DNA from: Escherichia coli
GTDB lineage: Bacteria; Pseudomonadota; Gammaproteobacteria; Enterobacterales; Enterobacteriaceae
Length of the DNA: 64,000 bases
Reading direction: 5' to 3' (one strand)
Assembly (NCBI RefSeq): GCF_003991155.1
Contig: NZ_CP031293.1
In this document: positions 3,001 through 9,000 of the stretch, piece by piece
How the letters are laid out: the number at the start of each line of letters is the position of its first letter
Numbering within the stretch: the first letter of the stretch is position 1
Position numbers: made by a program

Positions 3001-6000
3001 GTCGTCAGAAGGTAAACCACAAATATTTACAACCTTACGAAATATTGATCTTAACCTTCTGACTATTTTTGAAGCTGTATATGTACATAAAGGGATCGTT
3101 AATGCAGCGAAAGTGCTTAATCTGACACCCTCGGCAATCAGTCAGTCTATTCAGAAACTGCGCGTTATATTCCCTGACCCATTGTTTATTCGCAAAGGTC
3201 AGGGTGTCACTCCTACCGCATTTGCGATGCATCTACATGAGTATATCAGTCAGGGCCTTGAGTCCATTCTTGGCGCGCTGGATATCGAAGGAAGCTATGA
3301 TAAGCAACGAACGATAACTATTGCGACCACCCCCTCGGTCGGAGCCCTGGTCCTTCCTGTCATCTATCGGGCGATTAAATCTCACTATCCGCAGCTTTTA
3401 CTGCGCAACCCCCCCATCAGCGACGCGGAAAACCAACTCAGTCAGTTTCAAACCGATCTCATCATCGATAACATGTTTTGCACCAATCGTACGGTGCAAC
3501 ATCATGTTCTGTTCACCGACAATATGGTGTTAATTTGCCGTGAGGGAAATCCACTACTCTCTTTAGAAGATGACAGAGAGACTATCGACAACGCTGCGCA
3601 TATACTCCTGTTACCGGAAGGGCAAAATTTCAGCGGTCTGCGGCAGAGAGTTCAAGAGATGTTTCCGGACCGGCAAATCAGTTTCACCAGCTACAACATT
3701 TTGACAATCGCTGCACTGGTTGCCAACAGTGACATGTTAGCGATTATTCCCAGCCGTTTTTATAACCTGTTTAGCCGTTGTTGGCCGCTAGAAAAACTGC
3801 CTTTTCCGTCCTTAAATGAGGAGCAAATAGATTTCTCTATCCACTACAACAAATTCAGCCTGCGTGATCCCATCCTGCACGGGGTAATAGATGTTATCCG
3901 GAATGCATTTTGAAAAAGTATTGTTACAGCCAGATCACAGCGAAGAACGAAAAAATGGCACAATCCAACAACAATTTTACATTTTCGCGACCGCTTTGGC
4001 TGCTTTCAGGTCCGTTTCAATGATATACTGCCAGTCGTTAATTCAAAAATAGTTGATAATTACAACAATCTATTGAATTGAAACGCTTTCCTTCGTAATT
4101 CGCAACTGGAACACGCACGCTATGAGTAAACCCATTGTGATGGAACGCGGTGTTAAATACCGCGATGCCGATAAGATGGCCCTTATCCCGGTTAAAAACG
4201 TGGCAACAGAGCGCGAAGCCCTGCTGCGCAAGCCGGAATGGATGAAAATCAAGCTTCCAGCGGACTCTACACGTATCCAGGGCATCAAAGCCGCAATGCG
4301 CAAAAATGGCCTGCATTCTGTCTGCGAGGAAGCCTCCTGCCCTAACCTGGCGGAATGCTTCAACCACGGCACAGCAACTTTTATGATCCTCGGCGCTATT
4401 TGTACCCGCCGTTGTCCGTTCTGTGACGTTGCCCACGGTCGCCCGGTAGCTCCGGATGCCAATGAACCAGTGAAACTGGCGCAGACCATTGCCGATATGG
4501 CGCTGCGTTATGTGGTTATCACCTCCGTTGACCGTGATGACCTGCGCGATGGCGGTGCCCAACACTTTGCGGATTGCATTACTGCCATTCGGGAAAAAAG
4601 CCCGCAAATCAAAATTGAAACTCTGGTGCCGGATTTCCGCGGTCGTATGGATCGTGCTCTGGATATTCTGACCGCCACACCACCAGATGTGTTCAACCAT
4701 AACCTGGAAAACGTACCGCGTATTTACCGTCAGGTACGGCCTGGTGCAGATTACAACTGGTCGCTGAAGCTGCTGGAACGCTTTAAAGAAGCGCATCCGG
4801 AAATCCCGACCAAGTCTGGTCTGATGGTGGGTCTGGGTGAAACCAATGAAGAAATTATTGAGGTAATGCGCGACCTGCGCCGTCATGGTGTGACGATGTT
4901 AACGCTGGGGCAATATTTGCAGCCAAGCCGCCATCACCTGCCGGTTCAACGTTACGTTAGCCCGGATGAGTTCGACGAAATGAAAGCCGAAGCGCTGGCG
5001 ATGGGCTTTACCCATGCTGCATGCGGTCCGTTTGTCCGCTCGTCTTACCACGCCGATTTGCAGGCGAAAGGGATGGAAGTTAAGTAATCCTGTAATAATT
5101 ACTTACATCTGTCTGATAAAAAACCCGCTTTTTGAAGCGGGTTTTTTGTATCGAACAAGATATTGAGGGAGCGTCCTGCTCGCCACGTCACTCTTTATGA
5201 GAGAGCTTTTCAGCCTGAAGATCAACGTCTGCGCCTTTTTTCGCCGCAGCATCGTCATCATTCATCGCCTTCTTGAACCCTTTAATGGCCGCTCCAAGGT
5301 CTCCGCCCAGCGTACGTAACTTCTTAGTCCCAAACAGCAGAACGACCAGCGCCGCAACTACCAGCAGTTTGGTAATACTAATCTCACCCATAGATACCTT
5401 CTTGACATATAACCGGCAACAGAACGCGCCTTAAAAACCAGAGAATATTAACGGTCATTCGACGCGCGCACACAATAGCAATCTGTAACAAGGTGAATCA
5501 AGCGCCGAGTAAAAAAACATCATAATAATTGCGGCGGCGCAAAGCGACGGTTGTTTAAGACGGGCAGTTGCGCGCGCACCTGACGCACACGTTCGGGCGT
5601 CACTTCCGCCATAATGAGTGCAGGCATTTCTGACGCTGCCGCAATGGTGACGCCAAAGGGATCTATAATCCGGCTTTGCCCGATATTTTTGTTCCCGCAC
5701 TCCCCCGCCGCCACCATATAACAGGTGGTATCCAGCGCACGAGCGGCAAGCAACGTTGACCAGTGATGCTCTTTGAGCGGCCCACGAACCCAGGCAGCAG
5801 GAAGTACCAGGATTTCAGCTCCCTGTAATGCCTGTGCCAGCGCCAGCTCTGGAAAGCGTAAGTCATAACAGGTCATCAGACCGACCTTCATCCCTTCCAC
5901 CTCCAGTAACGGAGCTATTTCATTACCAGCATCAACATGGCGTGATTCCTGAATGGCAAATGCATCATAGAGATGAAGTTTGGCATAACGGGCGACGATG

Positions 6001-9000
6001 TTTCCTGCCTGTAGCGCCACCAGCATATTCCATGCGCGCCCCGGCGTTGAAGGAACATGAATCGTCAGAATTGTCGTCATCATGTTACGTTTACTTTCTC
6101 GACGTAAACGTCCGAGGAATTCGCCTTCCAGCAGCTGTGCTGATTTAACCGATAGATCTGCATCATGATCATCACGCGCCAACAATGCTTCCGGCAGGAC
6201 AAACAGCGAAACGTCGTTTTCCGCCGCCTGCGCCATCAACGAGGCACAAATCTCAGCGTTCTTTTCCCACACAGATGTCACAGCAAACTGTCCTGCGGCA
6301 ACCAGCATTGCCACCTCCTCCTGTCAGAGTCGTAAAATTCGCCAACGGCGATTATTCGGCGTTACACTTATCACTCATACAAATCAAATAGCAGGATTTT
6401 GCAGTGTTACAACTTCTTTTAGCAGTTTTTATAGGCGGTGGTACGGGAAGCGTGGCGAGATGGCTGTTAAGTATGCGATTTAACCCGCTGCATCAGGCGA
6501 TTCCGTTGGGGACGCTGGCAGCCAACCTGATTGGGGCATTCATCATAGGAATGGGATTCGCCTGGTTCAGCAGGATGACGAACATTGATCCCGTGTGGAA
6601 AGTATTAATCACCACCGGATTTTGTGGCGGTCTAACAACCTTCTCAACATTTTCGGCAGAAGTGGTGTTTTTGTTACAAGAGGGTCGCTTTGGCTGGGCA
6701 TTACTGAACGTTTTCGTCAACCTTCTGGGGTCTTTTGCCATGACCGCACTGGCTTTCTGGCTGTTTTCGGCCTCAACCGCACACTAAAGACCAAAAAAAA
6801 CCCGCTGATTAAGCGGGTTTTGAATTCTTGCTGACGTATCTTACAGAGCGATTACGTTTGCAGCAGAAGGGCCTTTGGCACCGTTAGTGATTTCGAACTC
6901 TACGCGCTGACCTTCAGCAAGAGTTTTAAAACCATTAGTCTGGATTGCAGAGAAGTGTACGAACACGTCTTTGCTGCCGTCTTCCGGAGTAATGAAACCG
7001 AATCCTTTGGACTCATTAAACCACTTAACGTTACCTTTAATCTTAGACATCAAAATTACCTTTACATGAAAAATAGACACAAATGCTGTGTCGGTTACCA
7101 GTACACCAATTGTGGTACGCTTTGTCCAGTGCAACTTTACTAAAAAGTGATAAAAGTCGCGTTATTTTTGATGTTAATTATTTTAGTGGTTGATTTTAAA
7201 GAATTTACTAAAACTTCATTTGTCTCAAAACTGAAAGCGCATCCAGGCAAAGTACACATTGCCATTGTTGTAGGTACCCGGAATGTAGGTCATCTGAAAC
7301 GTCGCGGGGCCATACCCCACAGAGGCCAATGGCAGTAGAACCGGGAGAGGGATGTAATTCCAGTTATCGCGTGCCGTTACGCCAGCGGTGAATCCCAGGC
7401 CTAAATGAAAATTTTCATCTGCCAGCGGTCGCCAGGTACTTTCCCATCCGTATCCGGCAATCGGTTCCCATTTGTTCCACGAGTCCTTAAATGCCATGGC
7501 ATACAGGCCATGCCAGTTTCCTTTTTCGTCCCAACGCGACTGACCAAAACCGCCACCCCACGGTCGCTCGTTATAGCGATCGGTTTTTTCTTTGTCATAG
7601 GCAAAACGCGCATGCCAGGTGATGGCAGGAATATATAAATCATAATGTTCTGGCTGTTGCCAGGTTTGTGCAATATTTTCTCTAAACGTTGTCATCCACT
7701 CATCAGCGTTAGCAAAAACTTTACCAACACTGATTAACTGAATAAAAACAAAGAAAAATATAGTGACATATTTACTCACGTTCATTTGTGACCATTAAAC
7801 ATTTATCAAAAATCTACTACTAGCATAGCAAAGCTACAATTAACATAACCTTAATAGCCCCAACATAAAAAATAATCTGAATAGCTGCTCTATTTATTTC
7901 CGCTTGTTTAAGTTAAATATTTCCGCACATCGATTAAAGATGATGCGTCGTTTTCTGCGATGGGAATAGTCAAAAAAGAAAAACCAAGTCTTTTTTGATG
8001 ACAAAATGCAATCAAGGAAAAATTATTTTATTTTTTAACGAGATACAACAATCATCTTAACGAAGTATATAATATATATCGTCAACCCATGCTCATATTA
8101 GATTATTTTTTGAGCGCATGGCCGCAGCTAACACCATTGCAATTAACAAATTTGCATCAATCCACCATCAATTTACACACATTATTATGTGATATTTGCC
8201 AACCGCTAAATATGCGTTTTGTTATCTACGTATAAAAACAGCAACTTCAATGTCTTAATGGCAGTTTTTCTTGATTTTAATCAGCATTCACCGCCAATTT
8301 ATTGGGCATATTTTTTCCTTAGTTTTTAGGAATTTTTTATTATTTACTTTGGGGCCTGGAGACAGGAAAAATTATGCTGACATTCATTGAACTCCTTATT
8401 GGGGTTGTGGTTATTGTGGGTGTAGCTCGCTACATCATTAAAGGGTATTCCGCCACTGGCGTGTTATTTGTCGGTGGCCTGTTATTGCTGATTATCAGTG
8501 CCATTATGGGGCACAAAGTGTTACCGTCCAGCCAGGCTTCAACAGGCTACAGCGCCACGGATATCGTTGAATACGTTAAAATATTGCTAATGAGCCGCGG
8601 CGGCGACCTCGGCATGATGATTATGATGCTGTGTGGCTTTGCCGCTTACATGACCCATATCGGCGCGAATGATATGGTGGTCAAGCTGGCGTCAAAACCA
8701 TTGCAGTATATTAACTCCCCTTACCTGCTGATGATTGCCGCCTATTTTGTCGCCTGTCTGATGTCTCTGGCCGTCTCTTCCGCAACCGGTCTGGGTGTTT
8801 TGCTGATGGCAACCCTGTTTCCGGTGATGGTAAACGTTGGTATCAGCCGTGGTGCAGCTGCTGCTATTTGTGCCTCCCCGGCGGCGATTATTCTCGCACC
8901 GACTTCAGGGGATGTGGTGCTGGCGGCGCAGGCTTCCGAAATGTCGCTGATTGACTTCGCCTTCAAAACGACGCTGCCTATCTCAATTGCTGCAATTATC

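Follow-up and report, generated by a model that had tools for sequence, protein, structure and literature searches.

We find that the window, that is the whole stretch of 64,000 nucleotides of Escherichia coli DNA analyzed here, carries on its minus strand at 5520..6308 what is very probably (at a rough probability of 0.9) the core gene ybeM in its intact, ancestral form, with a predicted 262-residue deaminated glutathione amidase of the Nit1 type as its product. The intact gene is the ordinary form of ybeM, and the observation of it in this DNA is correct, already known and unremarkable. K-12 ybeM is a documented pseudogene, and an intact gene is the standard annotation in most E. coli.

Gene model and genomic context

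In the window, an ORF finder returned a single uninterrupted reading frame of 264 amino acids on the minus strand (5520..6314), running from a GTG start to a TGA stop at 5520-5522. Chance is not the origin of this frame, because its product matches both Pfam CN_hydrolase and the NCBIfam model NF033621. The DNA is identical to that of ybeM in the RefSeq genome NZ_CP033635.1, where a 789-nt CDS, equivalent to window 5520..6308, encodes WP_001305561.1, a protein of 262 amino acids annotated as 'deaminated glutathione amidase'. In DNA, length, context and family score (NF033621), the RefSeq YbeM and the gene of the window show no difference of substance.

The annotated ATG of the CDS in NZ_CP033635.1 lies two codons downstream of the GTG, and the 264-codon frame is accordingly two codons longer than WP_001305561.1 at its upstream, in-frame GTG end. 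We used annotation and Shine-Dalgarno spacing to choose between the two start codons. The Shine-Dalgarno region (AGGAGGAGG, 6314..6322, minus strand, located from alignment columns 19-21 and the upstream sequences) contains an AGGAGG motif, which the ATG (6308-6306) follows after 5 nt and the GTG after only about 2 nt, the Shine-Dalgarno run itself extending into the GTG. Because the ATG, and not the GTG, is suitably spaced from AGGAGG, and because the RefSeq CDS starts there, 262 codons plus TGA are the better gene model, in agreement with the ORF, the RefSeq annotation and the PF00795 and NF033621 matches. The two additional in-frame codons GTG GCA (6309..6314, minus strand), by which the ORF-finder start differs from the RefSeq ATG, are probably 5' untranslated rather than coding. 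The preliminary description, which had reported an intact C-N hydrolase ORF of 264 codons, was thus right about the intactness and about the family, and its length is to be corrected to 262 codons with the curated start.

The gene is flanked by the divergent crcB on one side and by tatE, on the same strand, on the other, and the order crcB - ybeM - tatE - lipA is that of NZ_CP033635.1. Synteny with MG1655 is also seen, where ybeM (b4581, once split as ybeM/ybeH) occupies the same locus between the same neighbours.

A promoter scan gave no convincing sigma-70 site directly upstream of ybeM. As the counts from the promoter and terminator scan were not above those of shuffled controls, we claim no regulatory element. 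Scanned against Rfam, the interval 5000-7300 contained no element tied to ybeM, and no fluoride riboswitch was detected upstream of crcB. In the same scan, a cspA-type thermoregulator was placed over the cspE leader, in addition to sub-threshold noise.

Family membership and predicted activity

In a profile search, the match of the protein to PF00795 (CN_hydrolase) scored 141.4 bits (cut-off 23.2) at E=4.3e-41. Residues 5-247 align with profile positions 2-255 of 256, which amounts to a full-length domain. The model for deaminated glutathione amidase, NF033621, scored 451.5 bits against a curated cut-off of 355 and was aligned over profile positions 2-260 of 260. It was the sole family model whose cut-off was exceeded, as the eight others listed all scored under their own cut-offs.

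Among solved structures, the best matches are to the Nit domain of NitFhit from C. elegans (1EMS, E=1.7e-29) and to Nit2 of yeast (4H5U), and the motifs LPE, KLHL and CYD..RFPE are aligned in both. By alignment with the triad positions in 1EMS, the Glu-Lys-Cys triad of YbeM is Glu40-Lys110-Cys147. The codons, all on the minus strand, are found at 6189..6191 for the catalytic Glu (placed by motif position in 'LPE', aligned to the LPE of 1EMS), at 5979..5981 for the catalytic Lys ('AKLHL' motif, aligned to 1EMS, ttt on the plus strand), and at 5868..5870 for the Cys that serves as the catalytic nucleophile ('TCYDLRFPE' motif, aligned to 1EMS, aca on the plus strand). Eukaryotic Nit1 proteins (mammalian Nit1, the yeast NIT2 product 4H5U, NitFhit 1EMS) share with YbeM the fold of the nitrilase superfamily, the aligned Glu-Lys-Cys motifs and a putative role as amidase in the repair of deaminated glutathione (dGSH). 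Their sequences are only distantly similar to it (E about 1e-29 to 1e-27), and YbeM, unlike NitFhit, is a shorter, bacterial single-domain protein without a Fhit fusion.

Activity and substrate of YbeM are predicted from family membership (EC 3.5.1.128). The enzyme would hydrolyze dGSH to 2-oxoglutarate and Cys-Gly. Since dGSH arises as a by-product of transaminases acting on glutathione, the reaction would be one of metabolite repair. The link between YbeM and dGSH amidase draws on the NCBI family name and on Peracchi et al. 2017 (PNAS 114:E3233), in which dGSH amidase activity was reportedly described for the E. coli homologue. Nit1 is a dGSH amidase conserved among many bacteria (review, PMC7041631), and the bacterial NIT1 is called YbeM (PMC8788347).

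The intact frame could instead encode an enzyme of the nitrilase superfamily that acts on another substrate, such as a Nit2/YafV-type omega-amidase, a generic nitrilase or a generic amidase. Functions within the superfamily are diverse, and YbeM shows weak similarity to models for aguB, nitrilase, PRK10438/YafV-type amidohydrolase and formamidase. YafV (Nit2-type omega-amidase, NF007757) in particular has the superfamily and the catalytic chemistry in common with YbeM. However, NF007757 reaches only 61.5 bits on YbeM against a cut-off of 249, as for a paralogous family separate from YbeM, the remaining models other than NF033621 stay far under their cut-offs, and the nearest solved structures are Nit domains of the Nit1 type. 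We therefore regard a different substrate as quite improbable, and keep to a Nit1-type dGSH amidase as the preferred reading.

The K-12 lesion and its distribution

The statement in the preliminary description that ybeM is a disrupted pseudogene in K-12, in contrast to the copy in the window, is borne out by annotation and alignment. In MG1655, ybeM is annotated as a 'pseudogene' of 788 bp, and in K-12 ER2796 it is annotated as 'frameshifted'. Pairwise alignment with MG1655 ybeM places the single base missing in K-12 at alignment column 232. According to the alignment and the K-12 translations, the deleted base is the G of codon 67 (CGT, Arg), at gene position 200 and window position 6109 (minus strand). 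MG1655 does not have an identical intact ORF, as its copy is frameshifted at codon 67 and translation stops after 75 residues, ahead of the catalytic Lys and Cys. Past the deletion, the K-12 frame is otherwise open. Over the 789 nt of the CDS, the window differs from K-12 by 14 substituted codons (11 synonymous and 3 non-synonymous) in addition to the 1-bp deletion, and its Shine-Dalgarno region has one AGG unit more than that of K-12 (AGGAGG). The K-12 deletion form GGAC-TTTAC is absent from the window, which reads GGACGTTTAC at this site. With the G present at 6109, the window lies outside the frameshift clade.

A 1,021-bp query spanning the gene located ybeM in 5,424 of 5,426 genomes, with an identity of at least 95% at the best place in all records but one. 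The exact K-12 allele was present in 860 of the 5,424 complete E. coli genomes (∼16%), and intact ybeM is therefore the norm and the broken K-12 copy a minority form. About 84% of complete genomes (∼4,560), from all kinds of source, have the form without the deletion. Wild isolates from Mozambique, Ecuador and Tanzania carry the deletion allele under the annotation 'frameshifted', and the frameshift allele also occurs in clinical ESBL or carbapenemase-era isolates (PRO_A-1496-6W-A_ESBL, CREC-629, ECONIH6), as well as in AR_0011, which itself has a chromosomal ISEcp1-blaCTX-M-15. Four further carrier genomes that were compared had only 0-2 additional substitutions in the gene. The codon-67 deletion is a natural polymorphism, neither a laboratory artefact nor specific to K-12.

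These counts also bear on an implicit extension of the preliminary description, namely that intact ybeM marks pathogenic or clinical (ESBL) lineages. The window does contain blaCTX-M-55, and the closest genomes belong to ST457, a lineage described as high-risk. Nevertheless, a marker role is already contradicted, and very improbable, given that the non-deletion form prevails in genomes from sources of every kind and that the frameshift allele is carried by clinical isolates and by AR_0011 with its own ESBL gene. As the intact gene is the majority state and the frameshift is found in clinical ESBL/CRE isolates, the state of ybeM is uninformative on clinical origin or ESBL carriage. That the K-12 difference reflects a sequencing or assembly error (a false deletion in K-12 or a false insertion in the window), for which one could invoke single-base indels as the commonest assembly error, is effectively refuted by a site without homopolymer run (GGAC[G]TTTAC), by the agreement of many independent K-12 assemblies, and by the exact recurrence of the deletion in 860 independently assembled genomes and of the intact form in the ∼4,560 others.

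Lineage of the source and meaning of the allele

Relative to MG1655, the window lacks IS186B beside hokE and also lacks ybdR, so that both absences noted earlier are confirmed. The ybeM locus is ∼98% identical to MG1655, whereas both outer 25-kb stretches of the window are reported to match, at 100.0% identity, genomes that were published as ST457, which belongs to phylogroup F. The source is therefore not K-12, in agreement with the earlier conclusion that it is no K-12 derivative, and it carries an ESBL gene. The further suggestion of a clinical, ESBL-carrying isolate holds for its ESBL part, as a chromosomal ISEcp1-blaCTX-M-55 unit is inserted in citR. The clinical part is not inferable, as cattle, chickens, dogs and wastewater are among the sources of the nearest genomes, in addition to humans.

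The lineage was assigned from the nearest complete genomes only, since the window is without MLST or Clermont typing loci. ST457 is the likely lineage of the source, as a likelihood and not as proof, because LWY24, one of the exact-match genomes, was published as ST93 and not as ST457. Another genome, ECCNB12-2, has a ybeM match of 100%, but is only 99.4% to 97% identical to the rest of the window, and differs from it by an IS421/IS186-type element near hokE and by the lack of the CTX-M insertion, for which reasons it was rejected as the source of the window.

The state of ybeM is a weak lineage marker, which rules out K-12 and relatives with the codon-67 deletion and nothing further. The ISEcp1-blaCTX-M-55 insertion in citR is a more consequential feature of the window than ybeM. 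As regards the frameshift allele, loss of dGSH repair may have become fixed in a large natural clade that includes K-12, and could be a recent loss, selective or neutral, with a measurable phenotype (dGSH accumulation or excretion). The extra AGG might tune expression. We consider this scenario speculative and rather unlikely. If it were true, the wild type would be represented by strains such as the source of the window, and K-12 by contrast would amount to a natural knockout. K-12, when used as the reference, provides a natural null for YbeM, the predicted glutathione-repair enzyme.

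Gene structure and the lesion in K-12

An ORF finder returned ybeM as a single unbroken ORF on the minus strand (5520..6314; GTG start, TGA stop, 264 aa), as the preliminary description had stated. Across 5400-6420 the DNA is 100% identical to NZ_CP033635.1 (genome ECCNB12-2), in which RefSeq annotates a CDS equivalent to 5520..6308 (-) of 262 aa (WP_001305561.1, 'deaminated glutathione amidase'). Upstream of the gene, the sequence reads ...GACAGGAGGAGGTGGCAATG, with the AGGAGG motif 5 nt from the ATG and about 2 nt from the GTG. Annotation and spacing favour the 262-codon model, 264 codons being simply the longest possible ORF; the claim of intactness stands, with the codon count amended to 262.

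By its domain matches, ybeM is clearly a real gene. The protein matches Pfam CN_hydrolase near full length (E=4.3e-41) and scores 451.5 bits against NCBIfam NF033621 (de_GSH_amidase; curated cut-off 355), with each of the remaining nitrilase-superfamily models under its own cut-off.

In MG1655, ybeM (b4581) is annotated as a 788-bp pseudogene in the order pagP-cspE-crcB-ybeM-tatE-lipA, a context that the window matches, and in another K-12 strain, ER2796, the NCBI pipeline calls it 'frameshifted'. Pairwise alignment located a single K-12 lesion, the absence of a G from codon 67 (CGT), corresponding to window base 6109; the K-12 product stops after 75 residues, and the remainder is open in the +2 frame. 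K-12 thus has no identical intact ORF, in agreement with the gene's pseudogene status there, which is long documented. Lesion aside, the two genes differ at 14 codons, 11 of them synonymous and 3 not (V33A, V37A and H124R).

The Shine-Dalgarno region (6314-6322, minus strand) is AGGAGGAGG in the window versus AGGAGG in K-12, which has one AGG unit fewer; trinucleotide copy number is polymorphic in this region. Matches at the locus were 1021 nt long for UTI89, equal to the window, 1018 nt for many other genomes and 1017 nt for K-12 ER2796. Judged by length, this is consistent with an extra AGG common to the window and UTI89-like genomes.

Likely function and regulation

Among solved structures, two come closest: 1EMS (E=1.7e-29), the Nit domain of C. 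elegans NitFhit, and 4H5U (E=1.1e-26), yeast Nit2. On alignment to them, the catalytic motifs of the superfamily are intact, with Glu40 in LPE, Lys110 in AKLHL and Cys147 in TCYDLRFPE, and the codons were confirmed in the window sequence. Deaminated glutathione (dGSH) is a transaminase side-product and the substrate of Nit1-type enzymes; the E. coli homologue was reportedly found by Peracchi and co-workers in 2017 to be an efficient dGSH amidase. We infer the same activity for the window allele from its family membership. Bacterial NIT1 goes by the name YbeM (PMC8788347).

ChIP places an NsrR peak at the crcB/ybeM region in both CFT073 and K-12; the same study reports expression down 0.30-fold under NO stress (PMC5320621). 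For ybeM, an Rfam scan gave no element, and a promoter and terminator scan gave nothing above chance. The cspE leader and gene region (6793-7241, minus strand) matched the Rfam cspA thermoregulator (136 bits; gathering score 78), as expected for a cold-shock-protein paralogue.

Lineage of the source and its ESBL gene

The whole window was compared with MG1655 596-666 kb by BLAST. The 1,345-bp IS186B beside hokE in MG1655 is missing, the window junction at 56041-56052 corresponding to positions 12011 and 13349 of MG1655 locus L006. The entD-hokE interval of ECCNB12-2 contains a frameshifted IS421/IS186-type transposase. About 1.6 kb of MG1655 with ybdR (9884-11496 of locus L007) has no counterpart and is replaced by about 0.28 kb at 20845-21122. 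In a related annotated genome the order at this site is rnk-yldA-uspG. The ybdL gene of ECCNB12-2 (28141-29301 of locus L004, NZ_CP033635.1) is an annotated pseudogene with an internal stop.

Positions 1-25000 and 39001-64000 of the window were each reported as 100.0% identical to a few genomes, among them MRY15-117, MRY15-131, CREC-544 and 2016C-3878, and only 41 genomes reached at least 99% over 39001-64000. MRY15-117 and MRY15-131 (PMC5430464) and CREC-544 (PMC5884925) have been published as ST457, which is described as a phylogroup F lineage that occurs in people, farm and wild animals and the environment (PMC9780897). Because LWY24, another exact match, was published as ST93, an ST457 source is likely but not proven. 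These identities and the intact ybeM support a source that is not a K-12 derivative.

A 2,847-bp chromosomal insertion at 25979-28825, missing from both comparison genomes, interrupts citR (ybdO). It carries the ISEcp1 transposase gene (27377-28639, minus strand) and a bla gene (26246-27121, minus strand) whose product is identical to CTX-M-55 and differs from CTX-M-15 only by A80V, and a TAATAG duplication borders it on either side (25973-25978, 28826-28831). The truncated citR ORF (25233-26060) runs from a normal N-terminus into inserted DNA, with a foreign C-terminus. No complete RefSeq E. coli genome had the insertion at this site, the junction-spanning query reaching at most 84% coverage. 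Of the proposed 'clinical ESBL-carrying isolate', the ESBL gene is borne out by blaCTX-M-55; the matching genomes have sources as varied as patients, cattle, chickens, dogs and wastewater, which leaves no ground for calling the isolate 'clinical'. Overall, the preliminary observation was confirmed and its interpretation supported with these caveats.

Intact and frameshifted alleles in the species

Of 5,426 complete E. coli genomes in RefSeq, 5,424 have the ybeM locus. With K-12 queries of 76 nt and 63 nt that had the deletion at their centre, the exact frameshift allele was found in 860 of the 5,424 (15.9%), and about 4,560 matched with one extra base (a record span of 77 nt from the 76-nt query). 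Sampled carriers included three stool isolates, one each from Mozambique, Ecuador and Tanzania (the Tanzanian one has a name ending in '_ESBL'); each has ybeM annotated 'frameshifted' and only 2 mismatches to the MG1655 gene. Others were chicken, dog, bovine-mastitis and hospital isolates (e.g. CREC-629, ECONIH6 and AR_0011), and AR_0011 has a chromosomal ISEcp1-blaCTX-M-15. With so many natural and clinical carriers, the frameshift is a natural, clade-level polymorphism, not confined to laboratory K-12 derivatives, and the intact form predominates. Intact ybeM rules out K-12 and is uninformative on clinical origin or ESBL carriage; in the window it is an ordinary core gene, annotated before and already known, in its usual intact state.
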